A stretch of DNA of 64,000 nt from Escherichia coli (GTDB lineage Bacteria > Pseudomonadota > Gammaproteobacteria > Enterobacterales > Enterobacteriaceae), in NCBI RefSeq assembly GCF_050320075.1, contig NZ_CP190022.1; one strand, 5' to 3'. Shown one piece after another: positions 1-40,500 of this stretch; the first letter of the stretch is position 1, and the number at the start of each line of letters is the position of its first letter. The notes beneath the pieces are model-generated. The model was not told the origin of the DNA. It searched no databases and saw nothing but the letters and a program-made list of their open reading frames with translations. The position numbers and the translations under genes were made by a program.

Positions 1-873
1 GTGGCGGCCCTGAACCAGACCTCATTTACTGAAAGCACATACCGTCAGGTAAAGAACCCGAATCCGGTATTCACACCCCGTGAAGGTGCCGGGACGCTGA
101 AGTTCTGCGAAAAACTGATGGAAAAGGCCGTGGGCTTCACCTCCCGTTTTGATTTTGCCGCGCATGTGGCGTATGCCCGTTCGCGCGGCCTGCGCCGGCG
201 TATGCCGCCGGTGCTGCGCCGCCGGGCGATTGATGCGCTGCTGCAGGGGCTGTGTTTCCACTATGACCCGCTGGCCAACCGCGTGCAGTGCTCCATCACC
301 ACGCTGGCCATTGAGTGCGGACTGGCGACGGAGTCTGAGGCCGGGAAACTCTCCATCACCCGTGCCACCCGTGCCCTGAAGTTCCTGGCTGAGCTGGGGC
401 TGATAACCTACCAGACGGAATACGACCCGACAATTGGCTGTAATATCCCGACCGACATCACGTTCACGCCGGCACTGTTTGCCTCACTCGATATCTCAGA
501 AGAGGCAGTGGCTTCCGCACGCCGCAGCCGCGTGGAATGGGAAAACAGGCTGCGCAAAAAGCAGGGGCTGGATGCGCTGGGTATGGATGAACTGATAGCG
601 AAAGCCTGGCGTTTTGTGCGCGAGCGTTTCCGCAGTTATCAGGCAGAGCTTAAGTCCCACGGCATGAAACGTGCCCGTGCGCGCCGCGATGCAGGCAGGA
701 CCCGTCAGGACATTGTCACCCTGGTGAAACGGCAGCTGACACGTGAAATCGCGGAAGGGCGTTTCCGGGGAAGCCTGGAGGCCGTGAAGCGCGAAATCGA
801 CCGTCGCGTGAAGGAACGCATGATAATGTCGCGGAACAACAACTACACACGGCTGGCCACAGCCTCACCCTGA
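1..873 (+). CDS. repA: Replication initiator RepA (IncFII-family RepA1/RepZ type), 5'-partial at window edge
   Basis: ORF runs from window start to TGA at 871-873; translation ([33 protein letters not shown]...[13 protein letters not shown]) matches the IncFII RepA family as I remember it; true start lies upstream of the window. Confidence 0.9.
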
Positions 874-949
874 GTTTGACCTCATCTGAATAATCCGGCC
901 TTCGCCGGAGGCTTCCGCACGTCTGAAGCCCGGTGACGCACAAAAAAGC

Positions 950-1300
950 AGCACAGCACACAAAAAACAGCCTCATTATCTGCCTTCCGGCTCGCCTTGC
1001 TCCCCCTGTTTTTCACGCAAAACAGGTATCACAGACGGGGAATTCTGTTTATCCACATTTAACTGCAAGGGACTTCTCCGTAAGGTTACAACCGTTCATG
1101 CTATAAAGCGCCAGCCGCAGGCGTTACAGGGTGCAATGTTTCTTTTAAACCCCAGTAATGTATTTCCTTTAAACTACTTAATTACTTCCATTTAAAAAAA
1201 AGACCTATTCAGTGCCTGTCCTGTGGACAGACAAATATGCACCTCCCACGCTAACGCGCGGGCCCCGAACCTCACCGTTCTGGAACCACAAAAAAAAGAC
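950..1300. other. Putative vegetative origin (oriR) downstream of repA
   Basis: Non-coding stretch after repA with a consensus DnaA box TTATCCACA at 1049-1057 followed by an AT-rich segment (about 1140-1200); position matches IncFII-type ori; boundaries approximate. Confidence 0.45.
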
Positions 1301-1776
1301 ATCAGGAATAAAAACACCACACAAACGCAGCACCGTGCCCACCCCTCATAACTGAAAAGCGAGGCCGCCCCCGCCCGAAGGGCGGGAACAACATCGCTTT
1401 TAATTATGAATGTTGTAACTAAACATCTTCATCGCTGTTAGTCTTCTGGCTGGAAGTCCTCAGTACACGCTCGTAAGCGGCCCTCACGGCCCGCTAACGC
1501 GGAGATACGCCCCGACTTCGGGTAAACCCTCGTCAGGACCACTCCGACCGCGCACAGAAGCTCTCTCATGGCTGAAAGCGGGTATGGTCTGGCAGGGCTG
1601 GGGATGGGTAAGGTGAAATCTATCAATCCGTACCGGCTGACGCCGGGCTTCGGCGGTTTTACTCCGTATATCATATGAAACAACGGAGTGCCGCCTTCCA
1701 TGCCGCTGACGCGGCATTAAAAAGATGCTAAAATTGCAACATTTTCTATATAAATTCAATTAATTACCTAAGCAAG

Positions 1777-2262
1777 GTGAGACTTTTGGAAGAAATGGGC
1801 GCGGAACCCCTTTATCTGACAAATATAATTGAAGCAATAAGTAGGCTAATTATCGTCGTTAACAACAAAGTTATTTTCTCTTTAGATTTCAACATAACGA
1901 TAAAATTCAAAATAGCGAGAGCCACCACCCCCCACTCAAAAAAATTATCTGTTATCAGTTCCACATTAAATCCCTTCTATAATCAAATAAACTTCACAAT
2001 CACCGCACATCAGATTAGCGCCCCATATAACGATTACGTAAAAATATTTATCATTCCAACAGCCAGCATAATGGGGTTCCAAGCCGGAAACCTAGATTTT
2101 TCCGCGACCAGTAACGGCGTGGGTTGTCACATAAAGGGCTGCGTTTGGGAAACGTACAATATTGTACGGTTGCGCTATTGCGGTAGGGTATACTCTATTG
2201 CGATAGGCAATCCTGTTCAAAAAATAGGCTTGCCGTACAATAATTATCTATATCCAAACTGA
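1777..2262 (+). CDS. Hypothetical protein (AT-rich, Ile/Asn-rich; GTG start in track, ATG at 1795)
   Basis: 161-codon ORF in an AT-rich block with no competing ORF on the other strand; no recognisable family; weak RBS. Confidence 0.3.
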   Translation: MRLLEEMGAEPLYLTNIIEAISRLIIVVNNKVIFSLDFNITIKFKIARATTPHSKKLSVISSTLNPFYNQINFTITAHQISAPYNDYVKIFIIPTASIMGFQAGNLDFSATSNGVGCHIKGCVWETYNIVRLRYCGRVYSIAIGNPVQKIGLPYNNYLYPN

Positions 2263-2272
2263 CCCCTTTATA

Positions 2273-2569
2273 TCAATTTCCTCCCCCCTGGATGAGCGTG
2301 ACGATTACTGACGGACCCTTGACGCTCCAGCAAATTCCCCTGTTCCACATAGGTTTCCAGATATGACCGGTTATTTTCACATTCGGTGTACGAGTTACAG
2401 ATGCAAATAATACAGGTGCATTATCAATATCATCAGGGATGAAATGGTAAGATCGTGGAAAATGTTTATTCATAGCCCGGATGATGGCTGTCTGTGCATC
2501 CTTTGTTCGGGCGCGGTGTGTCCATTCACGCCAGCTATTCATCTCAGAAATAATAACAGTAATCATCAA
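2273..2569 (-). CDS. Hypothetical protein, 98 aa; second gene of a two-gene minus-strand operon
   Basis: ORF with GAGG about 7 nt upstream of the ATG at 2569; starts 26 bp after the stop of the upstream ORF (2596); no family recognised. Confidence 0.5.
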   Translation of the reverse strand: MMITVIISEMNSWREWTHRARTKDAQTAIIRAMNKHFPRSYHFIPDDIDNAPVLFASVTRTPNVKITGHIWKPMWNRGICWSVKGPSVIVTLIQGGGN

Positions 2570-2595
2570 AACCTCGTGCCGTTACCGGGGTCAGT

Positions 2596-3210
2596 CTATC
2601 GATGGTTGATTGCGGCGAGCACATCCTCTGTCTCTTTCATCCTGGCGTTATAACGCTGCGTGTGTTTTTCAAGTTTTGCCTGCGCATGCAGCGCTTCTTC
2701 TTCCGTTACAGTTCCATGAACTTTGCCATCCAGACCATAACGCGGCGTACCTGCGACTGATATACGCTGCAGATATTTGTAACCGCCAGTAATCATTCTT
2801 ACAGCACAATTCCATTCTTTTACAGTTAGTCCACACTCAGGACTGGCCGAAATAAAAGCCATGACATCCTTTGAGATGCCTATTTTAAATGCATGATATC
2901 CCCCCTCTTCAGCCCGTAACTGAGGGAATGTTTTTTTAACACAGTCCAGACTGTGTCGGATAAACTCATGATTCCATCTATTGTTCTTCTTTTTTTTCTT
3001 CTTCTTACGTCCTGTTTTTTTCTGTTGTTCCGGGGAACCGGCCACTGTGGCTGGTATTTCAGGAGGTAATGAGTCGGTTTTAAATTCCATTACTGGCGCT
3101 GGTTTTATATCATCAGGAACAGCCTGTACGGCATCATCCTGGTGAAAAAGAATTCGTCTTTTTTTCTTAATAATAACAACAGGTGACGGTTTCTTTGTGA
3201 CACTGCCCAT
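2596..3210 (-). CDS. Hypothetical protein with an internal poly-lysine tract (about 204 aa from ATG at 3210; track ORF extends to GTG at 3246)
   Basis: ORF 2596-3246 in track; ATG at 3210 preferred because GAGGTG sits 6-7 nt upstream; product has a K-rich run encoded by a poly-purine tract and a C-terminal globular part I cannot place. Confidence 0.5.
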   Translation of the reverse strand: MGSVTKKPSPVVIIKKKRRILFHQDDAVQAVPDDIKPAPVMEFKTDSLPPEIPATVAGSPEQQKKTGRKKKKKKKNNRWNHEFIRHSLDCVKKTFPQLRAEEGGYHAFKIGISKDVMAFISASPECGLTVKEWNCAVRMITGGYKYLQRISVAGTPRYGLDGKVHGTVTEEEALHAQAKLEKHTQRYNARMKETEDVLAAINHR

Positions 3211-3309
3211 ATACACACCTCTGCGTATCGTTAATCTGTAATTCACGACATACAGATAGTATATATCTAAGTCAGCAAAGTCACCAACAGAATAATGATG
3301 ATATTTATT

Positions 3310-4020
3310 TCATGACTGTTCACGAATTATCACTCTGGATTCCTTCCTGGTGACATAAGTACAGTTATCAGGTACATCTTCCATAATAAAAGACATGGCT
3401 CCAATTTTTACATTACTGCCTATTTTTACGTTAAGCCCGATAATACACGTATGGGCACCTACATCGACATTATCACCAATAACGATATAATTCTCTCTGC
3501 TGTCAGATTCCTTTTCGCCAATGGTCGTATTCTGCCGTATAATCACATTCTCACCGATCTTTACATTTCCGTGAATGACGACACCTGAATGGTGGGGCAG
3601 CACGAGGCCTTTACCAATCTGCGCCCCCAAACCAATATCACATCCATACTTTGCCATAAGCGCATTTTTTATCTTGATCGCACATTTTCGTTGTTTTTTA
3701 TTCCCCGATATATACATTTCATTAGCCAGACGCCACCACAGAAGAAAACCTCTCTGCCTCTGCATACCGTTCCTGATAAGCCGGTGAAAAACAATCTTAT
3801 CCCGCATGATAACTTCTGCTTTCCAGTATTCCAGAAGATGACGTTTTTTTCCTGATAATAAAAATGTGCCAATATGGAAATAAGAAATAGGATTTTTTAT
3901 CAGCATACGCAAATTTTCAGATAACAATGAATACAGATGTATTTTATATACACAGATAAAACCGCGCAACAGACATAAATATGACAGTAGCCATGAAAAA
4001 GCAGAGTGTCCTTGACCCAC
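3310..4020 (-). CDS. Hexapeptide-repeat acyl/acetyltransferase (serine O-acetyltransferase-like left-handed beta-helix); start uncertain (internal ATG at 3906 would give about 198 aa)
   Basis: C-terminal half is a classic hexapeptide repeat run (GCDIGLGAQIGKGLVLPHHSGVVIHGNVKIGENVIIRQNTTIG...IGDNVDVGAHTCIIGLNVKIGSNVKIG); track ORF start at 4020 abuts the miniature transposable element. Confidence 0.6.
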   Translation of the reverse strand: MGQGHSAFSWLLSYLCLLRGFICVYKIHLYSLLSENLRMLIKNPISYFHIGTFLLSGKKRHLLEYWKAEVIMRDKIVFHRLIRNGMQRQRGFLLWWRLANEMYISGNKKQRKCAIKIKNALMAKYGCDIGLGAQIGKGLVLPHHSGVVIHGNVKIGENVIIRQNTTIGEKESDSRENYIVIGDNVDVGAHTCIIGLNVKIGSNVKIGAMSFIMEDVPDNCTYVTRKESRVIIREQS

Positions 4021-4026
4021 GATATT

Positions 4027-4312
4027 GGGGTCCGCTTGGAATTCGGAAATTTTCCCACGCTAAGAGAATTGAGTTGAACGAGTGGTTACATCCAGGCCAG
4101 CTAACTCACTGAACGTAAAGGCTGTACGAAATGTTCTGACCGTCCGATAACCGTTTGGCTTACTTCCGTACATTCCCTTGCGTGGATGTACAGAATTGTA
4201 CGATTTCGGACACCAAAACCGCTGTTGTCCCGCCATTCTGGCGATTCCTGAAAGTTATTTGACTAAAAAACAGTCTTAACGTGGTTTATTTTCCGAATTC
4301 CAAGCGGACCCC
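4027..4312. mobile_element. Tn3-family-derived miniature inverted-repeat element (TIME-like), 286 bp, no transposase
   Basis: 38-bp terminal inverted repeats beginning GGGG and ending ACGCTAAG / ACGTTAAG (4027-4064 and 4275-4312, outer 23 bp identical), the hallmark of Tn3-family ends; interior too small to encode a protein; no 5-bp target duplication visible. Confidence 0.6.
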
Positions 4313-4675
4313 TGTACACGCCCCGATACTGAACTGGTCAACACTATGCTGGATAGCTCTGTCGAAACGTTAAATGCTGGCGAACGACCGGTGATACACA
4401 GTGACAGAGGTGGGCATTATCGCTGGCCAGGCTGGCTGGAAAGAGTGAATGCAGCAGGTCTTATTCGCTCAATGTCCCGTAAAGGATGTTCACCTGATAA
4501 TGCCGCATGCGAAGGCTTTTTCGGCAGACTGAAAACGGAAATGTATTATGGGCGTAAATGGTCGGGCATCACGCCAGAAAAGTTCATGCAGCAAGTGGAT
4601 GCTTACATCAGATGGTATAACGAGCGGCGTATAAAATTCTCGCTGGGTGCCGTCAGCCCCAAAATGTACCGCTAA
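4313..4675 (+). pseudogene. IS3-family transposase (OrfB) C-terminal fragment, 5'-truncated at the miniature element
   Basis: In-frame translation from 4313 (CTRPDTELVNTMLDSSVETLNAGERPVIHSDRGGHY...SMSRKGCSPDNAACEGFFGRLKTEMYYGRKW...YIRWYNERRIKFSLG) carries the DDE-domain C-terminal motifs of IS3/IS150-group transposases; the N-terminal two thirds are absent. Confidence 0.7.
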
Positions 4676-5139
4676 CAATGCGGGCTGGAATGATAAAGCA
4701 GTCCAGGAAATCGTCCGCATCCCCAAAACGGCCAATAATCTTGGCGTTGACACCACCGCCAGATCAGTGGCAGAAGTGCCGTCTGCGGGCAGACCTGCGG
4801 CCGGGACCAGCGGCAGTACGACGACTTCTGCCGCACGCTGTTCTGCCCGGAGGCGGTCCTGTTCTGCCAGCAGCAGAGGCTGTGCCACGGCCCGGCCGGC
4901 GTCCGTCAGCTCCACTGCCTGCTGCAGGTTCAGTTTTTTTCTGAATTTTAACTGTATTTGTCCTTTATTGTTCTTGTTTGTTCCCTGGTGTGCTATTTGA
5001 GTCGGTTTTTGTCTTCATTTTTCTTTATTTTTCTGTTTGTGGACGATATCAGGTCTTTACTGATGCGTGTTTTTAGGTGATAATCTTTTTCGGCGCCATA
5101 TTTTTCTAAAAAAATCCATTTTATTCTGTGAGGTTCTGG

Positions 5140-6120
5140 ATGCGTATCTTTGTAGATGACGGTTCTACCAACATCAAACTGGCCTGGGTTGAAGACGGTG
5201 CAGTGAAAACGTTAATTAGTCCGAATAGTTTTAAACCGGAATGGTCTATGACGCTGCAGGGACTGACTGATGCCACTATACCCGCTTCCGCAAACTATGA
5301 GATTGATGGAGAGAAATACAGCTTTGATCAATTGAGTCCGGATGCAGTGCGCACCACAGAAACGCGTTATCAGTACAGCGACGTTAATGTGGTTGCTATT
5401 CATCATGCGTTGATGCAGTCAGGTATTGCTCCGCAACCTGTTGATATTGTTGTGACTTTACCTTTAGGTGAGTATCTGGATGAGAACGATCAGCCAAATC
5501 TGGCTAATATCGAACGTAAGAAAAATAATGTCAGACGAGCTGTAACAGTTCAGGGGCGTGAAAACTTTACCATTCGTAAAGTCAGTGTCTTGCCTGAGTC
5601 CGTGCCTGCCGGTTTTGACGTGCTGAAAGATCTGAATGATCTGGAGTCGCTGTTGATCGTTGATATCGGTGGAACGACCCTTGATATTGCACATGTCCGC
5701 AGCAAAATGTCCGGTTTCACAAAAACTTATTGTGACCCCAAGACAGGCGTTTCCATCATTACTGAAGCAGTTAAGCATGCGATGGATGTGAATGTGAGTA
5801 CACGAACCAGTTCTTATTTTGCAGATCGTCTAATCCAGGGCCGGGATGACAATGAATTCCTGACTCGTTATATCCCGAATGCAGAACAGCGTGAGCAGAT
5901 CCTGACAGTATTATGTGACCGGGAAAAAAAACTGCAGCATCGTGTGGCGGATTCAGTAGGACGCTTTGCTGGTTTTACTCATGTTATGGTTGTTGGCGGT
6001 GGTGCCAGCCTTGTGGCTGGGGCAGTAAAAAAAGCGACAGGAGTGGGTGATAACCGTTTCTTTGTCAGTGACAATCCTCAGTTCGATCTGGTGTTGGGAA
6101 TGATGGCAATGAAGGGATGA
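5140..6120 (+). CDS. parM: Actin-like partition ATPase ParM/StbA
   Basis: Translation MRIFVDDGSTNIKL...DIGGTTLDI...VMVVGGGA matches ParM/StbA actin-fold motifs; GAGG RBS 8 nt upstream of ATG 5140 (track ORF begins at GTG 5128). Confidence 0.9.
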   Translation: MRIFVDDGSTNIKLAWVEDGAVKTLISPNSFKPEWSMTLQGLTDATIPASANYEIDGEKYSFDQLSPDAVRTTETRYQYSDVNVVAIHHALMQSGIAPQPVDIVVTLPLGEYLDENDQPNLANIERKKNNVRRAVTVQGRENFTIRKVSVLPESVPAGFDVLKDLNDLESLLIVDIGGTTLDIAHVRSKMSGFTKTYCDPKTGVSIITEAVKHAMDVNVSTRTSSYFADRLIQGRDDNEFLTRYIPNAEQREQILTVLCDREKKLQHRVADSVGRFAGFTHVMVVGGGASLVAGAVKKATGVGDNRFFVSDNPQFDLVLGMMAMKG

Positions 6121-6545
6121 GTATGGCTGATAATCGTAAGTGCTCTTTTTATATTTATCCGGAACGAAATGCAGCTGATCGGGTGGCTGACAGGTTTCTT
6201 GAAAAATTGCCTCAGAAAGAACGTGGTCGGGCAATGCGGGCCATGATGTTGTGTGGTGCTGCATTGATGAAACAGGATGAACGATTGCCGTTCCTGATAG
6301 CTGAATTCCTGACAGACAGCACGTCTATGCAGGATATTCAACGAATTATCAGTAGTACGCTACCACAACAGGAAAATGGTGAAGTTGTTCGTTTGCTGGA
6401 GGCATTTCTGCAGTCTGCCGGTAATAATGCAAAAACGATCCTGCCTGCGGTTGATTCTGCTTCGCAAGAAATATCTGCTCCAGTCGATCAGAATCTCCTG
6501 GAAACAAGAAACAACATTAAGAACTTGTTTCCGGATGATGAATAA
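6117..6545 (+). CDS. parR: Partition adaptor ParR/StbB (ribbon-helix-helix centromere-binding protein)
   Basis: ATG overlaps parM stop (ATGA at 6117-6120); product resembles ParR/StbB and sits in the expected position downstream of parM. Confidence 0.8.
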   Translation: MSMADNRKCSFYIYPERNAADRVADRFLEKLPQKERGRAMRAMMLCGAALMKQDERLPFLIAEFLTDSTSMQDIQRIISSTLPQQENGEVVRLLEAFLQSAGNNAKTILPAVDSASQEISAPVDQNLLETRNNIKNLFPDDE

Positions 6546-6560
6546 GAACTGAACTCTGTT

Positions 6561-6590
6561 AAAGGACGCTGTTGCGTCCTTTTTTCTTTT
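6561..6590 (+). terminator. Rho-independent terminator of the parMR operon
   Basis: GGACGC-TGTT-GCGTCC hairpin followed by a T-run immediately after the parR stop. Confidence 0.6.
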
Positions 6591-6944
6591 CCGACAAAGG
6601 ATGTCGCCGGGCTCCTCTTTTTACTGCGCCGGCTGACGCGGCGCGGCAGAAACGCTGCCTGTGGTCAGTGTCCCGCGTCCGGCGGGCACGGGACGGGCGC
6701 TTTTACCGCTCCCGGCTGGCGTCGGTGACAGTGTACGCCAGCCAGTCGCCCTTTTCTGATGAACGCCCTTCAAGCCGCTTTCGCGGCATAACCTTGCCGT
6801 CAAAAAGACGACGGCTGCGGTATTCCACGGTCGGCCTGACCCGTTACCGGACGCGGTGAACAGCCCACAGGCAGCGGGGAACGGGCGCTACAGGGGCGCC
6901 CTCCCGGTGCTCTCTGCTGAAGCAGAAGTGAGAGGAAAATTCCC

Positions 6945-7250
6945 ATGCCAAACTGGTGCTCGAATCGTATGTATTTTTCTGGTGAACCGGCACAGATCGC
7001 TGAGATTAAACGACTGGCCAGCGGCGCAGTCACACCGTTTTATCGCCGCGCCACAAATGAAGGTATTCAGCTGTTTCTGGCCGGAAGTGCCGGACTTCTG
7101 CAGACCACTGAAGATGTGCGGTTTGAACCATGTCCCGGACTGACGCCTGCCGGAAACGCGGGGTGCAGCGCCTGCGGCGCTGCCGGCCCGGCTTTCCGGT
7201 CAGAAGGTAGTGTATGGCTGTATGCCAGGAACAGGTGTGATATTCCGTGA
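6945..7250 (+). CDS. Hypothetical leading-region protein (about 100 aa), possibly 3'-truncated by the Frpo-like repeat
   Basis: AGAGGAAA RBS 8 nt upstream of ATG 6945; ORF runs to within about 40 bp of repeat copy 1 (7288). Confidence 0.35.
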   Translation: MPNWCSNRMYFSGEPAQIAEIKRLASGAVTPFYRRATNEGIQLFLAGSAGLLQTTEDVRFEPCPGLTPAGNAGCSACGAAGPAFRSEGSVWLYARNRCDIP

Positions 7251-7287
7251 CACTGTCACCGTTTCTGGCTGTTTTTTGTTGCGCCCA

Positions 7288-7790
7288 CTTCGGCTCCCGG
7301 CTGCCTGGCGGCATCCGGTCGTCAGGCCCGACTACGACAGGCAGCTGCTGGCGCACCCGCCAGTCTCCGCCGAACCCGCTGGCGCGGTTTCGGGCTGTCG
7401 CTACGGTCCGATGCGTGAAAACCCGGGCTTGCAGCGACCGTTCCGGTCGCGCCGCCCCTGTCGCGCCGTGACCTGCGCTCCCTGCACACCTGACGGTGTG
7501 TGAGGAAACTGCGCCTGATGGCGCAGCAGTCTTCCCTCCTGCCGCCACCTCTGCGGCCTGTTTCCCGCTGTGGACTTTCCGGGGGGCAGACGTAACCCCC
7601 TCCCGTTCCATCTGTCCAGGGTGAGATGCACCGGCCACAAAATTTTTAGCCATGAACCCGGCTAAAAATTTTGCGTCCGCCCCCGGACAGCTGTCCCGTG
7701 AGGCGGTAAACGGGCCCCCATCGGAAAGGTCCACTGCGGGGAGAAACCCCTGTGAAGTGGACGGCAGGAGGAGCTTTCGCTCCTCTGAAG
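7288..7790 (+). repeat. Frpo/ssi-like single-strand promoter repeat, copy 1 (upstream of ssb)
   Basis: About 500 bp GC-rich non-coding block shared near-identically with 13641-14140 and (3' half) 16717-17045; contains long imperfect palindromes; ends about 60 bp before the ssb RBS. Confidence 0.7.
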
Positions 7791-12493: not shown

Positions 12494-12957
12494 ACCAGTG
12501 GAGGTATGCTTGAGGGGCAGGGACATGCCGGTCATGATCGTTTCGTTCCAGGGGTGGTCTGGAGATCATGCGGCGTGTCCTCTGCTCTCGCCGGAATAAG
12601 GACGTCGCCGGCGGCTCCGCTTTTACCCGGCCATGCGGGGCATGGCCTTGTGGGTTTTCAGGTATGAAGCCATCGTGTCGTGTGCGGGCTGTGCCGTGCC
12701 TCCATCGTAGCCGGGCTTCTGTGGGCGGGATGCAAGGTAAGATGAACCGCTGCGGTCACCCGGTCCCTCCTTCCCGTCTGCCGTGATTTTCCGGTCGTTC
12801 ACCCGCTCAGATTTCGCGGTCTCACCCTCCAACTCCCGTCAGCCGTGCGCGTCGGGCTGCGGCTTTCCTTGCGCCCTTGCATCCCTGCAGGCCCGGCAAA
12901 GATGGAGGCACGGCACCGCCCGGTGTCGCAGAACATGTGACTATGGAGGATTCGGGA

Positions 12958-13640: not shown

Positions 13641-14140
13641 CTTCGGCTCCCGGCTGCCTGGCGGCATCCGGTCGTCGGCCCGACTCCGACAGGCAGCTGC
13701 TGGCGCACCCGCCAGTCTCCGCCGAACCCGCTGGCGCGGTTTCGGGCTGCCGCTACGGTCCGATGTCTGAAAAACCAGGCCTGCAGCGACCGTTCCGGTC
13801 GCGCCGCCCCTGTCGCGCCGGAAACGGCGCTCCCTGCACACCTGACGGTGTGTAAGGCCACTGCGCCTGATGGCGCAGTTGTCTGCCCTTCCGCCGCCAC
13901 CCCTGCGGCCTGTTTCCCGCTGTGGACTTTCCGGGGGCTGAAGCGGCCACAACACGTCTCAGCCGTCCAGGGGAAGATGTACCAGCCACAAAACTTTTTG
14001 CCGCAGGCGTCAAAAACTTTTGCGTCTGCCCCCGGACAACTGCCCCGTGCCGTGGCAGTCGCTGCCCCATCGGAAAGGTCCACTGCGGGGAGAAACCCCG
14101 AAGAAGTGGACGGCAGAAGGGGCTTTCGCCCCTCCGGGGA
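13641..14140 (+). repeat. Frpo/ssi-like single-strand promoter repeat, copy 2 (upstream of the 14188 ORF)
   Basis: Near-identical to copy 1 over about 500 bp; ends about 50 bp before ATG 14188. Confidence 0.7.
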
Positions 14141-14187
14141 ATAACCGGTCGGCCCGGCGACCTGATTCAGCAGAAGGAGACGTTTTC

Positions 14188-14622
14188 ATGACAGTCAGCA
14201 GCACGATTTCCGTTTTTTGCCGAGACGGGGTGTTCCGTACCGTTTACTGCCACCTGCACGGTGAGCCGACCTGGAACGGTCGCATCCTGCATACCCACTA
14301 TGCCACCGGTCAGCTGGCCGAAGCCCTGGTTGAACACGGAGATATCCGTTGCCTCGGTCCCCGTTGCGACAAACCCGCCGGGCATACGCTTCAGAACCCG
14401 GTGGACGGTGTGACGGCTTATTACGGACGTGACAGTGGTTTCCGGATGGACAGTGAAGCGCGTGAGTACCGCTCTTTCAGGGAGGCTATTGCCACTGAAA
14501 GCACAGAAGAGGTGCGCTTCCATTATGTGTTCATCGACGGCTACTGGAAGGTGATGTACCGCACGCCGGAAGGCTGGAAGATGAAAGCGCTCGCGCTGGC
14601 ACTGCGTCGCTGTCCGGAATGA
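14188..14622 (+). CDS. Hypothetical leading-region protein (144 aa), first gene after repeat copy 2
   Basis: GAAGGAGA RBS 7 nt upstream of ATG 14188; Cys/His-rich (CHLHGEP...CLGPRCDKPAGH); no family recognised. Confidence 0.6.
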   Translation: MTVSSTISVFCRDGVFRTVYCHLHGEPTWNGRILHTHYATGQLAEALVEHGDIRCLGPRCDKPAGHTLQNPVDGVTAYYGRDSGFRMDSEAREYRSFREAIATESTEEVRFHYVFIDGYWKVMYRTPEGWKMKALALALRRCPE

Positions 14623-15045: not shown

Positions 15046-15984
15046 GTGAGTAAGAAGAAAACCACCACGACGCCCACGCCGCATGATGCCGCGTTCCGGT
15101 CGTTCCTGGCGAACCCCGACGTCGCCAGAGATTTTCTGGAACTGCATCTTCCGGCGGAGTACCGGCAGTTGTGCGACCTGTCCACGCTGAAGCTGGAACC
15201 CGCCACCTTTGTTGAGCCGGACCTGCATCAGTACGCCAGCGATATCCTCTGGAGTGTGAAAACCACCGGGGGTGAAGACGGCTATATTTATACGCTCATC
15301 GAGCACCAGAGCACCGAAAATCTGTACATGCCTTTCCGCATGTTACGTTACAGTGTGGCGGCGATGCAGAGACATCTGGAGCAGCACAAAACATTGCCAC
15401 TGGTGATTCCGGTGCTGTTCTATCATGGTGAGCGCAGCCCGTACCCGTACAGCATGAACTGGCTGGACTGTTTTGAGGATCCGGCGCTTGCGGCTAAAAT
15501 ATACACAAAGCCGTTTCCGCTGGTTGATATCACTGTCGTTGATGACAATGAAATCATGAACCATCGCCGGATGGCCGCACTGACGCTGCTGATGAAGCAT
15601 ATCCGCCATCGTGACATGATGGAGCTGCTGGACAAACTCCCGCAGGTCATGGTGGAAATTTCAGACGAGCAGGTGCGTGTTCTGATTCATTACATCGTTA
15701 ACGCAGGGGACTCTGTATCACCGGAATTTATGCGGGCGCTGGCTGAGCGTCTGCCGCAGCATGAGGATAAACTGATGACTATTGCCGAACGTCTTGAGCA
15801 GCAAGGAATACAGAAAGGAATACAGCAGGGAATACAGCAGGGAATACAGCAGGGAATACAGAAAGGCCGCATGGAGGAGAAGCAGGATATTGCGCGTCAG
15901 CTTCAGAAAACGGGAATGCCATCTGCACAAATCTGTCAGATCACCGGACTTTCCGAAGCTGAACTGAAGAACATCACTCACTGA
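15046..15984 (+). CDS. Rpn-family (YhgA-like, PD-(D/E)xK) recombination-promoting nuclease with C-terminal QGIQ-repeat tail
   Basis: N-terminal TPTPHDAAFRSFLANPDVARDFLELHLP...YIYTLIEHQS is the Rpn/YhgA signature; AGGAGG RBS 6 nt upstream of GTG 15046 (track ORF starts at 14989). Confidence 0.8.
   Translation: MSKKKTTTTPTPHDAAFRSFLANPDVARDFLELHLPAEYRQLCDLSTLKLEPATFVEPDLHQYASDILWSVKTTGGEDGYIYTLIEHQSTENLYMPFRMLRYSVAAMQRHLEQHKTLPLVIPVLFYHGERSPYPYSMNWLDCFEDPALAAKIYTKPFPLVDITVVDDNEIMNHRRMAALTLLMKHIRHRDMMELLDKLPQVMVEISDEQVRVLIHYIVNAGDSVSPEFMRALAERLPQHEDKLMTIAERLEQQGIQKGIQQGIQQGIQQGIQKGRMEEKQDIARQLQKTGMPSAQICQITGLSEAELKNITH
15805..15864 (+). repeat. Five tandem 12-bp units (GGAATACAG + AAA/CAG) inside rpn encoding (QGIQ)n
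   Basis: Perfect tandem 12-mers 15805-15816, 15817-15828, 15829-15840, 15841-15852, 15853-15864. Confidence 0.9.
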
Positions 15985-15993
15985 TGAGAACCA

Positions 15994-16023
15994 CAAAGCC
16001 CGGCAAAATGCCGGGTTTTTTTG
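15994..16023 (+). terminator. Rho-independent terminator after rpn
   Basis: AAAGCCCGGCA-AAA-TGCCGGGTTTTTTTT hairpin plus T-run right after the rpn stop (15982-15984). Confidence 0.65.
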
Positions 16024-16046
16024 TCAGCAGGAGCAGAGCAAACAGC

Positions 16047-16229
16047 ATGACGATTGCAGAACGTCTTATACAGAAAGGTTTCGACGAAGGTTTTAAGAAA
16101 GGTGCGCTTGAAGTGGCGCGGGAAATAGCCTGCCGGCTTCGGGATATAGGCTGGTCGCCGGAACGGATTCAGGAGGTCACGGGACTTTCCGGTGAAGAAC
16201 TGAAAAAACTGTTTCCTGATGAGCTGTAG
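16047..16229 (+). CDS. Small stand-alone protein (60 aa) paralogous to the Rpn C-terminal tail
   Basis: Own AGGAG RBS after the rpn terminator; MTIAERLIQKGFDEGFKKG...EVTGLSGEELKKL parallels the tail of the upstream Rpn (MTIAERLEQQGIQKG...QITGLSEAELKNI). Confidence 0.55.
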   Translation: MTIAERLIQKGFDEGFKKGALEVAREIACRLRDIGWSPERIQEVTGLSGEELKKLFPDEL

Positions 16230-16259: not shown

Positions 16260-16511
16260 TCACACATCCTCTGCCGTTTCCCCCAGTTCATTTTCCAGTC
16301 GCCTGATGATATCTGCCTTACGCATCCCCTGCATGTGAGGCAGCAGGTCACGGACTGAAAGAGCCTGGGTGGTCCTCCAGACGGTGACGTCCACCTGTTC
16401 CGCATTTTCCCAGGCGTGCCATGTTCTCTGCGTCACGCCAAATTCTCTGGCCGCTTTTTCGCGTGACCAGAGCATGCTTTTTCGCCAGATTCGCAGTTCC
16501 CAGCCGGTCAT
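16260..16511 (-). CDS. Small helix-turn-helix transcriptional regulator (83 aa)
   Basis: Product contains an HTH-like segment (AAREFGVTQRTWHAWEN); sits directly next to two palindromic operator-like sites. Confidence 0.55.
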   Translation of the reverse strand: MTGWELRIWRKSMLWSREKAAREFGVTQRTWHAWENAEQVDVTVWRTTQALSVRDLLPHMQGMRKADIIRRLENELGETAEDV

Positions 16512-16527
16512 AAAACACCTTTGAAAA

Positions 16528-16611
16528 AGTGAAAAAACTTCACTTTATTTTATCATCATAATCATCAAATCAGCGCGATAAATAAGTGTGAAAAAGTGAA
16601 GAAATTTCACT
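16528..16611. promoter_or_regulatory. Two operator-like palindromes (AGTGAA-N5-TTCACT) in an AT-rich promoter region
   Basis: AGTGAAAAAACTTCACT at 16528-16544 and AGTGAAGAAATTTCACT at 16595-16611, each embedded in AAAAGTGAA...TTCACTTTT; immediately upstream of the minus-strand HTH gene start (16511). Confidence 0.45.
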
Positions 16612-16716
16612 TTTTTTTGATTGTGGGTGTCGTGCTGTTTTCTCTGTTTTCACCTGTGCGGGAGTGGTGTGCCAGTGACCACCACATGCCATTGTTGTGC
16701 CGTCGTTTTTCTTCAG

Positions 16717-17045
16717 TCGCGCCGGATGCGGCGCTCCCTGCACACCTGACGGTGTGTAAGGCCACTGCGCCTGATGGCGCAGCTGTCTCTGCCTGTCTGC
16801 CGCCGCACTGCGGCCCGTTTTCCGCAGACGGACTTTCCGGGGGTACATACACGACCACATCCCGTTTCAGTCGTCCAGGGGAGAGATGTACCAGCCACAA
16901 AACTTTTTGCCGCAGGCGTCAAAAACTTTTGCGTCTGCCCCCGGACAACTGCCCCGTGACGTGGTGAGCGTCCCCCGTCGGAAAGGTCCACTGCGGGGAA
17001 ATCCCCGAAGACCCGGACGGCAGAAGGAGCTTCGCTCCTCCGGGA
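16717..17045 (+). repeat. Frpo/ssi-like single-strand promoter repeat, copy 3 (5'-truncated; upstream of the 17089 ORF)
   Basis: Matches the 3' 330 bp of copies 1 and 2; ends about 45 bp before the 17089 start. Confidence 0.7.
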
Positions 17046-17088
17046 AATGACCTGGCTGACCCGGCAGTCGTGACGATGAGGAGACAAT

Positions 17089-17940
17089 GTGATGAATCAG
17101 ACTTTACCCACTGCTGACCTGAATACTGCCGGCACGACAGATGTTATTCCGTCTGTGGCTATCGACCGCATCATCGCGCAGCGTAACGAAGGTATTGCAC
17201 TGTTCATGCAGGCGATGGAATGCCTGGCGACAGCGCGCAGGATTCTGCTCGATGCTTCCGGTGACATTTTTCTCTACGGGTTTGAAGACTGCGTGACTGA
17301 TTCCGTTCGTCGCATGGATAAACCGGAAGAAGCGAAAAGGAATATCACCCGTCTTGCCGACCGGAAAATCTGGGACCGCCTGATGACAGATACGGGCATG
17401 TACACCTTCATGAGTTCATGCCAGCGTGATGAGTGGAACAGCCAGCTGATGAGCGACACCTGTCCTGAAATCATCCTGGACAATGTACTGGCAACATTCC
17501 GCCATCTGAATGCCAGCAAAATGCAGACATTTGAACAGGGACTGATTGATGTCTACCGGAAATTGTCATGGGATTACAGAACCAATAATCCCTGCCGTCT
17601 GGGCAAGAGAATCATTATTGAAAACCTGCTGTACCGCTGGAGTAACGGGCGTGTGACGCTGGACTGCAGCGGGCGGGAGGCACTGGATGACCTGGTACGT
17701 CCGTTTTATCTGCTGGATGGGCGCAACATTCCTGACTTCCGGAGCAGCATCGGGGCGCAGTATGGTGAATTTCTCGGGAACGGCGACAATGTCGGTAAGC
17801 TGTTAGAAGGGGAATATTTTACGGTGCGTGGCTACCAGAAAGGGACCGTACACATTGTCTTTAAGCGTTCTGACCTTGTTGAAAAACTGAATGATATTAT
17901 TGCACGGCATTATCCTGGTGCATTGCCGCCACGAGTCTGA
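17089..17940 (+). CDS. Hypothetical leading-region protein (283 aa)
   Basis: GAGGAG RBS; followed by a clean terminator; no family recognised. Confidence 0.6.
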   Translation: MMNQTLPTADLNTAGTTDVIPSVAIDRIIAQRNEGIALFMQAMECLATARRILLDASGDIFLYGFEDCVTDSVRRMDKPEEAKRNITRLADRKIWDRLMTDTGMYTFMSSCQRDEWNSQLMSDTCPEIILDNVLATFRHLNASKMQTFEQGLIDVYRKLSWDYRTNNPCRLGKRIIIENLLYRWSNGRVTLDCSGREALDDLVRPFYLLDGRNIPDFRSSIGAQYGEFLGNGDNVGKLLEGEYFTVRGYQKGTVHIVFKRSDLVEKLNDIIARHYPGALPPRV

Positions 17941-17948
17941 TTAAAAAG

Positions 17949-17984
17949 AAAAGCCCTGGTATTTATGCCGGGGCTTTTTTTTCT
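17949..17984 (+). terminator. Rho-independent terminator after the 17089 ORF
   Basis: AAAAGCCCTGG...CCGGGGCTTTTTTTT hairpin with T-run. Confidence 0.6.
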
Positions 17985-18025: not shown

Positions 18026-18361
18026 TCAATTGTTGTTCATATCGATGCCATCTTTTCTGCCTGAATCTGTCTTTTTAGGTGCTGTTTTAGAGGAAGAACG
18101 GCGGGATGGTTTTTTCGATTCTGCTTCCCGAATAATGTCACGAAGTGCCTTCTCTCCTACTTCATACCCTGCATTTTTGAGCGTGTCACGAACATCTGCC
18201 AGTGTATAACCCTTTGTCCTTACCAGGACAATGATGTCATCACGAATGGCATCAAGAAAATCACGCAATGTTTTCCGTTGAGCGGTGAGGTCCGGCAATT
18301 CCGATAAGGCAGATTTTGCCAGCTGGATGTCATCATCTGAGTAAAATTTTTTAGAAGCCAT
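18026..18361 (-). CDS. Hypothetical small protein with basic C-terminal tail (111 aa), divergent from oriT
   Basis: ATG at 18361 with GGAGAG about 10 nt upstream (track ORF starts at GTG 18367); C-terminus KKPSRRSSSKTAPKKTDSGRK suggests nucleic-acid binding. Confidence 0.5.
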   Translation of the reverse strand: MASKKFYSDDDIQLAKSALSELPDLTAQRKTLRDFLDAIRDDIIVLVRTKGYTLADVRDTLKNAGYEVGEKALRDIIREAESKKPSRRSSSKTAPKKTDSGRKDGIDMNNN

Positions 18362-18399
18362 TAGCACTTTCTCTCCGTTTCATGTTGAAGTCTGATTTT

Positions 18400-18590
18400 A
18401 TCATCAAAAACTGACTCCTGGCAGGGCTGCGCCCTGCCTCTGCCGTCTGCATAAGACTATGATGCACAAAAATAACAGGCTATAATGGCCTGAAAAACGG
18501 GACAGGATGTGGGAATGTCGGACCGCGCACGCGCACTCAGACATTCCCCACCTGGTCAGGGCTTTGCCCCGACACCCCGGTAAGGAGCAG
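18400..18590 (-). other. Origin of transfer (oriT), IncI/IncP-like, with predicted nick core on the minus strand
   Basis: Immediately upstream of nikA; minus-strand reads ...GGGGAATGTCTGAGTGCGCGTGCGCGGTCCGACATTCCCACATCCTG/TCCCG with the ATCCTG nick-core motif (plus 18503-18508) and a 12-bp-arm inverted repeat (18511-18522 / 18537-18548). Confidence 0.75.
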
Positions 18591-18593
18591 ACC

Positions 18594-18926
18594 ATGAGTG
18601 AGAAGAAAACCCGAACGGGCAGTGAGAACAGGAAGAGAATTGTAAAATTCACGGCGAGATTCACGGAGGATGAGGCTGAAATCGTAAGAGAAAAAGCGGA
18701 GTCAAGTGGACAGACGGTTTCAACATTTATACGAAGCTCTTCACTGGATAAGGTGGTTAACTGCCGTACTGACGACCGTATGATTGATGAGATTATGCGT
18801 CTTGGCCGCCTTCAGAAGCATCTGTTTGTGGAGGGAAAACGCACTGGTGATAAGGAGTATGCAGAGGTTCTTGTTGCCATTACTGAATATGTCAATGCTC
18901 TGCGAAGAGACTTAATGGGACGCTGA
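18594..18926 (+). CDS. nikA: Relaxosome accessory protein NikA (ribbon-helix-helix, oriT-binding)
   Basis: AAGGAG RBS; product (MSEKKTRTGSENRKRIVKFTARFTEDEAEIVREKAESSGQTVSTFIRSS...RLGRLQKHLFVEGKRTGDKEYAEVLVAITEY) matches NikA. Confidence 0.85.
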   Translation: MSEKKTRTGSENRKRIVKFTARFTEDEAEIVREKAESSGQTVSTFIRSSSLDKVVNCRTDDRMIDEIMRLGRLQKHLFVEGKRTGDKEYAEVLVAITEYVNALRRDLMGR

Positions 18927-26542: not shown

Positions 26543-26734
26543 GGGGATTCCTCCATAGATGAATGGATAAATTTCGGGATTAAGTCGGGTGGCATGAATG
26601 CGAATCAGCGCCGGTAATAACCGGACAGGAATGAGTTCAACAGGACATTTTCACAGAGAAGAGCGTGGGAGACAGGTACAAAAAAACCGACTGGTGAGGC
26701 CGGTTTTTTTGCGATTCCGGGGTGGAGTTGGTGG

Positions 26735-26766
26735 CTCTGACCGGAGGAAGTCTCTTTTCAACTAAC
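26735..26766 (+). repeat. Direct repeat A (about 32 bp, CTCTG-CCGGAGGAAGTCTCTTTTCA-CTAAC)
   Basis: Repeated with two mismatches at 26969-27000, 234 bp downstream. Confidence 0.8.
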
Positions 26767-31424: not shown

Positions 31425-31608
31425 AGTATTTCCTTCCAGGTCATTATTACTTCCAGATTTAACATGATGTCTGTAACCATAAAATAATGAACGTGTTCCG
31501 GGAATCCTTGCCGTGTAGTTTCCCGTAAAAATACTGTTGTGCATTACATGTCATTAGGTGGAAACCGATTGTGGCAGACTGAAAATCGATTAGAATAGCG
31601 GCGGGCGC

Positions 31609-31902
31609 TTGAGGCTGTATGCTGAAAGCGTTTTGTGGACGGCATGCAGCAGAAAGCCCCAGGCGATTTTTTTATCAATCAACCCAGGGCCCACTGTAAT
31701 GCCTCAACAACATTATAGTAGCCCGATGACGGCCGAAAGGCAATGGAGGGGCTGCGATGCCACAACGAACGTTTTTAATAATGTTAATCGTCGTCTGTGT
31801 GACGATACTGTGTTTTGTCTGGATGGTGAGGGATTCGCTTTGCGGATTTCGTATCGAGCAGGGAAATACAGTGCTTGTGGCAACGTTAGCCTACGAAGTT
31901 AA
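31609..31902 (+). CDS. pndC: Overlapping translational-coupling reading frame of the hok-family module (mok/PndC-like)
   Basis: 97-codon ORF overlapping the toxin ORF in another frame, as in hok/mok and pndA/pndC. Confidence 0.55.
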   Translation: MRLYAESVLWTACSRKPQAIFLSINPGPTVMPQQHYSSPMTAERQWRGCDATTNVFNNVNRRLCDDTVFCLDGEGFALRISYRAGKYSACGNVSLRS

Positions 31903-37549: not shown

Positions 37550-40500
37550 CAGAGGTGATATCCCTGCTTACGGATGAGTTCCGCAGCCAGATCATGGATG
37601 ACGTTTTCACTGTCATGTGTACGGGCGCGGTGTTCTATCAGTGAGGTGGCTGAACCACGGGGAAAGTTTTCTGCCAGGATCTGGCGTGCCCGCAGTGACC
37701 CGAGCTCCTGCGTCAGCGCACGTCTCAGGGCGCTGTCTTTGGGTGAGGAATTCAGAGCCCACAGCTCCAGTGGACCGAGAGTGAATTTCAGGATCCGGGC
37801 CAGCGTACCGTTTTTTACACGGAACACAGCCAGTACCGGGACACCGCTGCCATCCGGTGCAGCCCCTTCCGGCATTTTCAGAAAGCGCCGCAGGGTGACT
37901 TCAGGGACACCAAAATTATCCCGCAGAAACGGAATTTCGTCAGGGCGGTAACGCAGCAACCAGAGGGTGTTGGCGGATTTGAGAACTGCCGGTGGATAGT
38001 CCTGCAGTAGCTGGGTGCTCAGCACTGTGCGTATCCCGAACTTACGCTGCTCCAGCTCCTGGGTGTCCAGGGCTTCCCAGATGAAGTTGATCCCTTTTGC
38101 ATTGTGCAGTTCGTCATAGACTTTGGTCTTGACCTCCTGATCAAGCTGTTCAATGCGGCGGAAAATCACCTCATGGTAGCGTGGGTCGAGATTTTTCCGT
38201 ATTTCCTCCTGATACTGCGGCAGGACAAAATCCCCGCCGGCGATTTGTCCTGCCAGCAGGTACATGATGCCGGTGCGCAGACGCCCGGCAGGTGTCTTGT
38301 CACCGGCCACATTGTTCAGATCAACGGCCACAACGCGGGTGTCGGGGCTGAGCATAAACCGGGTACAGCCGGACATCATCGGGTAGTCACTGTGTCCCTG
38401 ATCGAGGGCACGGCGGATGTAGTCCAGTAACAATTCTGCTGAGTTATCGCGCTGAACTGTGCCGAACACATCCCGGATGGATGGCTGTCCCAGCAGGGCG
38501 GACATTTCAGCCAGCAGGGGCATGGCCTGGTAGTGTGCCCGCTGGGCTGCGGGGATATTGCCAGCCATATGCAGCATGTCCCTGATTTCAAACCAGGTGG
38601 CAGCATTCCACCATCCAGCGTCATGTTGTTCTGCGATGCCACTCTCTTCCAGGGCGAGATCCACAAGGGGCTCTGTTCCTGCACGGTACAGTCTGGGGTT
38701 GTTTTCGCCATACTCCCTGAAGGCCAGATCCACCAGGTTGCTTATGATTTGCCGGGTGTCACCGGGATTACAGGGCTGACCGGTGCCGGTATCCACGCAC
38801 AGTGCGCAGAGTACAGATACCATGAAGTTCTTTTCCGGGGTGGCGGGTTTTTTAGCACCGTACATCACATCAAACAGGTTACGGGTGTGTTCCGGATCAT
38901 TGCTCAGAATGATCCCCACGGCTTCGTCCTTTCTCTGCTCCGGCAGGCTGTCACGGATAAGCTGTACCAGTCCCTGTGCACTGAATCCCTTGTCGATATA
39001 GGCAATGAAAGGCAGGTTCTTCTGGGCTGAGGCTATCTGGATCTCCGACAGTGCGTTGATGAGTACCGATTTGCCCAGACCGGGTGCGCCGGGCGTCAGT
39101 TCCGTGTGCTTGTTCTGTTGTGACGATGCCAGTGCGACCTCCCATGCAGAGCCGTCCTCGGTGTGCATCATCAGATTTCCCTGTCCCCGCCAGACAGAGC
39201 CTGCCCTGTTCAGGGGAAACAGGGAAAGGGCGTGTGAAAGGGGCGGGTAAAGGGGGACTGGACCGGAACCGTGGGAGGCTGCCAGAACCGTGTTCACCCA
39301 GGCACGTCTCGGATCACCGAAGGTGGTGGTGGTGCCGCATACCCCCCAGCCTTCCAGCGCAGATTTCAGGAGAGCCTGGTTACGGGTACAGACTTCCCGG
39401 CTGTTTCCCCATGTGGTGGCAACAATGGTCATGATACAGACCGGATCATGTTTGTTGATGTCATTCAGCATCATCACCGAGTCATACATGGGCCGGAGAG
39501 GGGAAATAAAGCTGCTGTAGGTCAGCAGGGTTTTCTTGACCCCAAGCGCCTTCATGCCGCCGGGCATCAGATCCATCCGGATACGCCAGGGGATTGCGCG
39601 GGGCACATCCCTGACCAGCTGGTTGAATGTCCGCAGATTCTGGGGGGGCAGGGTAATGGCGACCATACCGTGCCAGAGGTCACCGGCCTTTATCAGGCTG
39701 CCGTGTGTTTCAGGCTGTGTGGTGAATAACTGCAGATTCAGCGACGGTGCGTGGAATACAGAGGTATCCTCGCCCTGTCGCCAGCCGGCAGGACGGGCAT
39801 CTTCAGGCAGATGAGGCTGCCATACTGCAGGTGTGCTGTTGCGCTCCAGTTGACGGCGGATTTCCCGTCCCACTTCATGAATATCTATCAGGCGAACCAG
39901 CAGACCATCAGAATCATGTGTCAGGGCCTGCTCCAGCGTGTCCAGAAAGGCGTCATGCCGTATTTTGAGTGCGGAAAGTGTCCAGCGCCATGGATCCTGC
40001 GCAAATCGGGCTGGCGGAGCGTGTTCAGCGAGTTTCCTGATACGGGTCTGGTGGTCCTTGCGATCGGTCCGGCTCAGCAGTTCTTCAGAGCTCCAGACGG
40101 TCAGCCAGCAGCGTTCCCGGACAAGCCAGGGGGTGAGCGTGGTGACTTTTTCATCCAGAACGTCCTGAAGCAGGATCCCCGTGCGTGCGATGGATTTTCG
40201 CTGGGGTAAGAGCATGGCTTCGATTTCATCCCTTCCACGCTCCGGATCGCGTTCGAAAACAAAACTGATTTTGTGACCGATGTTTTTCCAGGCAGTGTTC
40301 ATTCGCTCTGCCAGCGCTGTAATCAGTGATTCCAGTGTGCCGGGGGCTGTCAGGTCCGGGTTTTCATCCATTTCTTTCAGGGCACCGCTGATTTCAAAGA
40401 CGGAAAGGTAATACCCCTGTTTGGTGGTGGCAATGTAGGGGGCTTTCAGCCAGGGGCGGCGTTCGCGGTCCTGCTGGTCCAGACCGATGACGGTGTGCAG

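Follow-up and report, generated by a model that had tools for sequence, protein, structure and literature searches.

The oriT-proximal unit of an IncI-complex leading region

We analysed a window of 64,000 nucleotides (nt) of Escherichia coli DNA (NCBI RefSeq assembly GCF_050320075.1, contig NZ_CP190022.1; all coordinates refer to this window) with a focus on the gene for a DUF4942 protein that lies near the transfer origin (oriT) and on the repeat that precedes it. Together they make up the oriT-proximal transcription unit in the leading region of a conjugative plasmid from the IncI complex (IncK2/Z-like). At megablast level the locus matched 2036 plasmid records, 1903 of them conjugative, and the best matches were typed as IncK2/Z, their relaxase being MOBP and their mating system MPF_I. 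The genes are arranged as ssb, DUF905, a ParB-like gene, psiB, psiA, ardA and a small operon with an Rpn-family gene; next come an Xre-type helix-turn-helix (HTH) gene, which is encoded on the other strand, the DUF4942 gene itself, a small minus-strand open reading frame (ORF), nikA and nikB. This is a classic IncI-complex leading region, and ColIb-P9 (NC_002122) and pESBL (NC_018659) carry the identical gene order at the oriT end. The DUF4942 gene and its immediate signals are the following:

17092–17940, + strand: DUF4942 gene (Pfam PF13708, E 1.8e-50; RefSeq annotation of near-identical plasmids; ratio of non-synonymous to synonymous substitution rates (dN/dS) 0.10 against pESBL)
17078–17083, + strand: ribosome-binding site GAGGAG, identified from the sequence, 8 nt 5′ of the ATG at 17092
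about 17945–17982, both strands possible: intrinsic terminator hairpin, identified by RNA folding

Counted from a GTG codon the ORF spans 17089–17940 (+) and encodes 283 amino acids (aa); on near-identical plasmids RefSeq places the start at the ATG at 17092, which gives a protein of 282 aa. Directly 3′ of the stop codon a GC-rich hairpin with a 17-bp stem is followed by U8 (free energy −27.7 kcal/mol, z −7.1 against shuffles), as expected of a Rho-independent terminator. Since an A-run stands before the hairpin and a T-run after it, the terminator could work on both strands. The good ribosome-binding site and the clean terminator had already been recognised in a first-pass annotation of this DNA, which also named the gene as the one nearest to oriT on the + strand. 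This is the case; the nearest ORF overall is the one on the minus strand at 18026–18367.

A third copy of a putative ssDNA promoter repeat precedes the DUF4942 gene

A BLAST search of the segment 16600–17090 against the whole window revealed three copies of a repeat of ~330–350 nt, of which copy 1 is 80% and copy 2 is 86% identical to copy 3. The copies and the structural elements of copy 3 are:

7460–7785, − strand: repeat copy 1, found by BLAST, upstream of ssb (7855)
13812–14158, − strand: repeat copy 2, found by BLAST, upstream of a 144-aa ORF (14186–14620) and the Rpn-family gene
16716–17065, − strand: repeat copy 3, putative class-1 single-stranded DNA (ssDNA) promoter and ssi/Frpo homologue, assigned by repeat family, identity and folding; the minus strand is the transferred strand that folds, and the transcript is + sense
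16796–17024, − strand: extended imperfect hairpin formed by the transferred strand, apex at ~16914, taken from the minimum-free-energy pair list
16882–16891, − strand: conserved 10-nt bulge GTACATCTCT in the 3′ arm, unpaired in the minimum-free-energy and the consensus fold

A third repeat copy upstream of the ORF had been proposed before, described as 5′-truncated and ending about 45 bp in front of the gene. The truncation concerns the upstream flank: ~80 extra bases common to copies 1 and 2 (7380–7459 and 13730–13811) are missing from copy 3, the hairpin core of which (16796–17024) is complete nonetheless. The distance was approximately right as well, as the homology of copy 3 stops at 17065 in comparison with copy 2 and at 17040 in comparison with copy 1, that is 24–27 or 49–52 nt before the start codon.

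Copy 3 is homologous to characterised ssi/Frpo elements. It is 98.9% identical to positions 37850–38199 of ColIb-P9 and 68571–68920 of pESBL, and its core (16837–16947) shares ~78% identity with the IncF Frpo1 region. The ssi sequences were originally defined as single-strand initiation sites, and three Frpo-like repeats are said to have been described in the ColIb-P9 leading region already in 1999, by Bates et al.

Folded as DNA, the minus strand of copy 3 reaches −109.1 kcal/mol (z −8.7) and the plus strand −90.6 kcal/mol (z −4.4); a difference of this kind would be expected if G-T pairs contribute on one of the strands. When the three window copies and the IncF Frpo1 are folded to a consensus, 78 pairs result, 20 of which are kept via changes on both sides. 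The element is hence a long, stable hairpin specific to the transferred strand with compensatory change, the covariation being modest, supporting evidence as it compares only four sequences. On the transferred strand the bulge contains TACATC (TACATT in IncF), which could serve as a pre-melted −10 element; transcription would then start near 16941. A search of Rfam at gathering thresholds gave no match at this locus. The homology and the fold support the assignment of copy 3 as a class-1 ssDNA promoter homologue that is positioned to drive the DUF4942 ORF from the transferred strand.

Two minus-strand ORFs (16545–16742 and 16713–17087) overlap copy 3, and in related plasmids RefSeq lists a 65-aa ‘hypothetical protein’ at this place. 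Both are situated within a structured non-coding element and probably do not represent real genes.

The nick motif predicts early entry of the unit

Two features lie between the DUF4942 gene and nikA:

18502–18548, − strand: oriT core with the nick motif CATCCTG/T (18509–18502; the slash marks the nick) and the inverted repeat GGGAATGTC/GACATTCCC (18511–18519 and 18540–18548)
18026–18367, − strand: YggA/Hp23-type ORF of 113 aa, between the DUF4942 gene and oriT

The nick motif CATCCTGT is located 2 nt from the inverted repeat and ~85 nt upstream of nikA (ATG at 18594). CATCCTG/T is the IncP-type nick-region consensus, and the oriT of pESBL is annotated at the equivalent place (70354–70436). 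The site thus shows the arrangement of an IncI/IncP-type oriT, namely ATCCTG/Y on the correct strand together with an inverted repeat, both upstream of nikA, and cleavage is predicted here; by analogy the nick site would lie at ~18503/18502. The motif is found 17 more times in the window, and it is the position that carries the argument for oriT. In total YATCCTGY occurs 18 times compared to 8.9 expected occurrences (standard deviation 3.2), a number that none of 100 shuffles reached, and among these 18 copies the one at 18502–18509 is the only one in an oriT-like setting.

A nick in the minus strand means that this strand enters the recipient with its 5′ end first, toward lower coordinates, and provides the template for every leading gene on the + strand. 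It is therefore strongly supported that the YggA-type ORF enters first, then the DUF4942 gene and then repeat copy 3, all within roughly the first 1.8 kb. The YggA/Hp23-type ORF, for which no Pfam match was found, is unreadable from the incoming ssDNA because the transferred strand is its coding strand. With the nick motif on the minus strand, the DUF4942 gene is the first entering gene whose template is the transferred strand. The first-pass annotation had predicted the minus-strand nick, the early entry of the gene and a repeat placed to drive it; the motif beside the inverted repeat backs the first of these, and homology, fold and nick polarity back the other two. For the F plasmid a transfer rate of 791 nt/s was measured (preprint 10.64898/2026.01.09.698686). 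At this rate the whole unit would be inside the recipient within about 2–3 s, a value that may differ for IncI plasmids.

The DUF4942 protein is conserved and widespread

The first reading of the locus could not assign the protein to a family. It is a clear member of Pfam DUF4942 (PF13708), with residues 90–275 aligning to positions 5–189 of the 190-position model (i-E-value 1.8e-50), and identical proteins are labelled ‘DUF4942 domain-containing protein’ in RefSeq. The same family is listed among leading-region families as family 24 in supplementary file 3 of PMC11541004, where it is one of the largest uncharacterised ones, with a median position of 1 from oriT and the transferred strand as template. 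The role against defences that the first reading implied would have been contradicted by a strong match to a family known to act outside defence; no such match was obtained, as DUF4942 has no assigned function. It comprises 1989 clusters at 50% identity (E ≤0.001), and most members are stand-alone proteins of 255–295 aa.

Across 46 sequences that share 27–53% identity with the query, S21, W94, L97, G150, D200, H254 and N267 are invariant. The gene differs from its pESBL counterpart by 14 synonymous and 5 non-synonymous changes (dN/dS 0.10), which shows that the plasmid protein is under purifying selection, and the protein is 97–98% identical to the commonest IncI variants. An AlphaFold2 model (predicted local distance difference test score 84.8, predicted template modelling score 0.70) displays a disordered tail (residues 1–17), six helices (21–158) and an alpha/beta domain (~170–275). 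The isoelectric point (pI) of the whole protein is 6.0 (family median 7.1) and that of the alpha/beta C-terminal half is 9.0.

The remote-homology and fold search that had been suggested for this protein thus yielded a family, whereas no solved or annotated fold was matched: searches of the PDB by sequence and by a profile of the 46 sequences gave nothing below E 0.49, NCBIfam contained no significant family (best E 0.18), and PADLOC returned one match of 35 residues (E 0.0018) that is not meaningful. Neither similarity in sequence or fold to known anti-restriction or anti-CRISPR proteins (ArdA, ArdB/KlcA, Ocr-like mimics) nor the strong acidity expected of the mimics was observed. Literature searches for ‘DUF4942’ returned only incidental mentions, in four papers, with no anti-restriction activity reported for the family, and searches for ‘ydiA’ and ‘ygfB’ combined with plasmid terms returned nothing.

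Among 5426 complete E. coli genomes, about a quarter (1340) contain the full-length gene, almost always on plasmids. A homologue is found on at least 5000 plasmids, 4600 of which are conjugative, and the carriers include IncI, IncK and pOXA-48-type resistance plasmids. In pOXA-48-like IncL plasmids it belongs to the leading region, at a distance of ~6 kb from the relaxase accessory gene, and in IncHI1B/FIB plasmids it occurs amid small unknown genes. One homologue adjoins primase and RadC genes, one has DUF2958 as its neighbour in the early region of a phage, and on the Shigella SRL island one follows the KlcA-RadC-YeeU/YeeV module. The neighbours of DUF4942 homologues include KlcA, RadC, ssb and primase genes. 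A recurring methyltransferase neighbour was not found in the contexts sampled, and the leading region of this plasmid contains no methyltransferase gene.

DUF4942 forms the N-terminal half of phage methyltransferases

In phage proteins of 520–560 aa that are annotated as DNA methyltransferase (phrog_6263), DUF4942 constitutes the N-terminal half. These orphan N6-adenine methyltransferases, among them Marinomonas phage P12026 gp32 and Pseudomonas phage phiPSA1 gp22, are likewise encoded in early or replication regions of mobile elements. The 282-aa plasmid protein aligns over its full length to the N-terminal ~270 residues of the phage fusions with 22–30% identity. The C-terminus of the fusions carries EPSAGxG, followed by NPPF/Y ~60–80 residues later, and produces weak Pfam matches to MTS and N6_Mtase; its nearest solved relative is M.TaqI (E 0.06). 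In contrast to the phage proteins with this core, the plasmid protein stops at the DUF4942 boundary.

Fusions of DUF4942 with a methyltransferase core were found in phages and metagenomes. Some metagenomic ones are as short as 460–468 aa, with a linker of ~30 aa and a catalytic core of ~170 aa, and these contain no other domain able to recognise DNA. In phrog_32703 the two modules occur in reverse order, and the same catalytic core is also present in giant phage proteins. Intermediate forms consist of DUF4942 and a linker without the core, some of them visibly frameshifted. The metagenomic proteins P0266 and P0280 are fusions of DUF4942, linker and methyltransferase that are apparently frameshifted or truncated within the catalytic core, and P0265, P0272 and P0279 from Pantoea and Serratia plasmids comprise DUF4942 and the linker domain only. 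These forms suggest that the enzyme half was lost repeatedly.

Within the 282 aa of the plasmid protein we found no Pfam methyltransferase domain, no S-adenosylmethionine-binding motif I and no (D/N/S)PP(Y/F/W) motif. The label ‘Methyltransferase’ on some database entries is thus inherited from the fusions and wrong for the plasmid protein. We read the fusions as evidence that DUF4942 may be a nucleic-acid-binding or methyltransferase-associated module, which the plasmid protein would have kept without the enzyme. A partnership with the methyltransferase of pESBL-type leading regions was also considered and rejected: that enzyme has another motif order and no real similarity, and its gene is absent from this plasmid.

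Further signals in the window

Within 16513–16618, two palindromes of the form AAAGTGAA-N5-TTCACTTT (16526–16546 and 16593–16615), 67 nt apart, sit between the divergent Xre-type HTH gene (16260–16511, − strand; HTH_31, E 1.2e-4) and repeat copy 3. They look like an operator pair. A sigma-70-like promoter on the + strand (16529–16556) overlaps the first palindrome, and the gene of the putative Xre-type repressor is readable only after conversion to double-stranded DNA (dsDNA).

Two other hairpins were noted outside the unit. In the 460-nt gap upstream of ardA (12494–12955) the transferred strand can form a long hairpin (−112.8 kcal/mol, z −6.05) that shows no similarity to the three repeats; a ‘class 2’ ssDNA promoter has been reported 5′ of the pESBL ardA gene, and the hairpin agrees with it (PMC12672017). 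A terminator-like hairpin CCGGCAAAATGCCGG at 16000–16014, followed by a T-run, lies inside an annotated small ORF (15984–16229) just after the Rpn-family gene and may be the true end of the operon driven by repeat copy 2.

On the side far from oriT (window 1–7460) the leading region is short. This part contains repA, a ProQ/FinO-like gene, a serine acetyltransferase-like gene, an IS3 transposase fragment and ParM/stability genes before repeat copy 1 and ssb are reached; the klcA, DUF1380, DNA methylase, DUF1281 and umuDC modules of pESBL and pTB-nb2 are absent from it. Rfam identified the sok antitoxin RNA at 31603–31759 (+, 123.7 bits) and the AgrB antisense RNA at 26678–26765 (−, 52.8 bits). 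They are regulators of plasmid addiction and of a DinQ-like toxin and lie outside the studied unit.

DISCUSSION

The unit described here is shared with ColIb-P9, R64 and pESBL, where the oriT-proximal unit is composed of a class-1 ssDNA promoter (one of ssi1–3) followed by ygfB (Hp22 in pESBL). These plasmids have the same succession of Xre-type HTH gene (−), repeat, DUF4942 gene, YggA/Hp23 ORF (−), oriT, nikA and nikB, and there is essentially no difference at the locus, although the present backbone is IncK2/Z and not IncI1, and its leading region is shorter on the far side, without klcA, the methyltransferase and the umuDC module. The promoter–gene arrangement (ColIb-P9, pESBL) and the position of the family are already published, and to these the locus adds nothing new. 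The only fresh lead of our analysis is the link to the phage methyltransferase fusions, and it is a modest one.

Published work on homologous promoters indicates how the unit may be expressed. In pESBL transconjugants from which donors had been removed, RNA sequencing revealed the induction of six leading-region operons, up to ~500-fold at 15 min (Wen et al. 2025, PMC12672017). Each induced operon has an ssDNA hairpin promoter upstream, three of which are ssi1–3 and named class 1, and the start sites were confirmed by 5′ rapid amplification of cDNA ends. We found exactly three class-1 copies in pESBL, which precede ssb, Hp16 and the DUF4942 gene Hp22; Hp22 would therefore be one of the induced genes. 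In F, transcription from Frpo1 and Frpo2 takes place on ssDNA in the recipient and is lost on conversion to dsDNA, and when Frpo is deleted the proteins encoded downstream are no longer made early (Couturier et al. 2023, PMC9849209). The hairpin core of Frpo1, which drives ygeA and ygeB, is homologous to that of copy 3, with the stem kept via compensatory changes, and follows the same logic of a transferred strand that serves as template for transient expression before dsDNA conversion (PMC9849209). F differs in the genes downstream of Frpo1, which encode YgeA and a DUF932/YubP-type YgeB instead of DUF4942, and its oriT-nearest gene ygfA is oppositely oriented and expressed only after conversion (PMC9849209).

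We propose the following course of events. The minus strand would be nicked at oriT and enter the recipient with its 5′ end first, and copy 3, while single-stranded, would fold into the long imperfect hairpin. By homology, host RNA polymerase would start on this hairpin and read the transferred strand toward oriT, yielding a + sense mRNA with a leader of ~150 nt, GAGGAG, the 282-aa ORF and the strong terminator. This short burst of expression would, again by homology, end once the complementary strand has been made; the repeat might additionally prime or stall complementary-strand synthesis and so keep the unit single-stranded and active for longer. In the first minutes after entry the DUF4942 protein would bind nucleic acid or a component of a methyltransferase or restriction system, which is likely because the same module occurs in minimal phage orphan N6-adenine methyltransferases without another DNA-recognition domain. 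It would act as an accessory establishment or anti-restriction factor that is dispensable in permissive laboratory matings. The transcription-unit part of this proposal, i.e. a promoter in the form of a hairpin on the incoming strand, expression in a transient burst and a strong terminator, is well supported. The explanation as a whole, an early unit driven by an ssDNA promoter together with an accessory establishment or anti-restriction DUF4942 protein, is the one we favour, at slightly better than even confidence.

Several points weigh against this explanation. The experimental support for ssDNA-driven expression comes from homologues on other plasmids, and the induction of pESBL Hp22 is deduced from its class-1 copy. 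Convincing −35/−10 hexamers could not be placed on either hairpin arm, where we found the TACATC/TACATT of the bulge and weak −35 candidates near the apex. In view of the putative operators and the sigma-70-like promoter upstream, the DUF4942 gene may also be expressed from a repressible double-strand promoter. For the protein, searches revealed neither a DNA-binding motif nor a known fold nor any resemblance to anti-restriction or anti-CRISPR proteins, and the case for an anti-defence role consists of association and domain fusion. Finally, Hp22 of pESBL is non-essential, with scores of 1.00 for non-essential, 0.00 for maintenance and 0.00 for transfer (Yamaichi et al. 2014, PMC4288162). This dispensability in laboratory matings neither supports nor excludes a role against defences.

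A more specific form of the idea is that stand-alone DUF4942 proteins represent a new class of early anti-restriction or anti-defence factors whose origin, or shared counterpart, is the half of phage orphan adenine methyltransferases that recognises DNA. We put this forward tentatively, as a possibility that we hold to be less likely than its opposite. If true, stand-alone DUF4942 proteins would be produced from the incoming single strand during the first minutes after entry and, without methylating anything themselves, either protect the plasmid DNA or inactivate a system of the host that restricts DNA or senses methylation.

Alternatively, the DUF4942 protein could be an establishment factor unrelated to defence, involved in strand processing near oriT (recircularisation, priming or 5′ protection) or in reprogramming of the host. 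The gene adjoins oriT, its expression is predicted to be early, and the C-terminal domain of the protein is basic. Roles outside defence are also seen in other leading-region proteins: ygeA and ygeB have effects in F (PMC9849209), and YfjB was recently reported to reprogram the host (PMC13370423). However, transposon insertions in pESBL Hp22 leave transfer and maintenance unreduced (PMC4288162), the homologue of pOXA-48-like plasmids at ~6 kb from oriT demonstrates that adjacency to oriT is not required, and the phage homologues are fused to methyltransferases and not to replication or recombination domains. We consider this alternative unlikely, yet worth keeping in mind.

The covalent linkage of DUF4942 to N6-adenine methyltransferase cores in both domain orders, and the prominence of orphan methyltransferases in leading regions (PMC11541004), would also agree with a detached specificity or activating subunit that works in trans with host Dam or a plasmid orphan methyltransferase to methylate incoming DNA. 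Such a subunit is quite improbable here, as this leading region offers it no methyltransferase gene as partner, a methyltransferase does not recur among the neighbours in the contexts sampled, and the leading-region enzyme of pESBL, with its different motif order, is unrelated to the fused cores.

It is very improbable that the repeat mainly primes or stalls complementary-strand synthesis and that the ORF is a decaying, functionless remnant of a methyltransferase. The definition of ssi elements as initiation sites and the truncated, frameshifted fusion proteins in metagenomes would fit such a scenario. The same is true for F, in which an ssDNA promoter hairpin is a roadblock to complementary-strand synthesis (preprint 10.64898/2026.01.09.698686). 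A remnant is, however, difficult to reconcile with a dN/dS of 0.10, seven invariant residues across 46 sequences and a gene that is full-length in about a quarter of E. coli genomes and equipped with a good ribosome-binding site and a terminator. That the repeat also primes, or acts as a roadblock, may well be the case alongside its promoter function.

A DNA-mimic anti-restriction protein of the ArdA/Ocr kind can scarcely be credited: the leading-region location is shared with ardA, but the protein is not strongly acidic (pI 6.0) and resembles neither ArdA nor any solved protein in sequence or fold. What ArdA and KlcA/ArdB have in common with the DUF4942 gene is the compartment, the orientation and a predicted expression from ssDNA promoters; there is no sequence or structural similarity between them and the DUF4942 protein, which is not acidic.

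Returning to the explanation that we favour, an early unit driven by an ssDNA promoter, the DUF4942 gene is predicted to be the first plasmid gene that can be expressed in a new host. Assigning a function to DUF4942 would fill one of the largest gaps in how resistance plasmids establish themselves, and knowledge of its role could point to a target for blocking their transfer.

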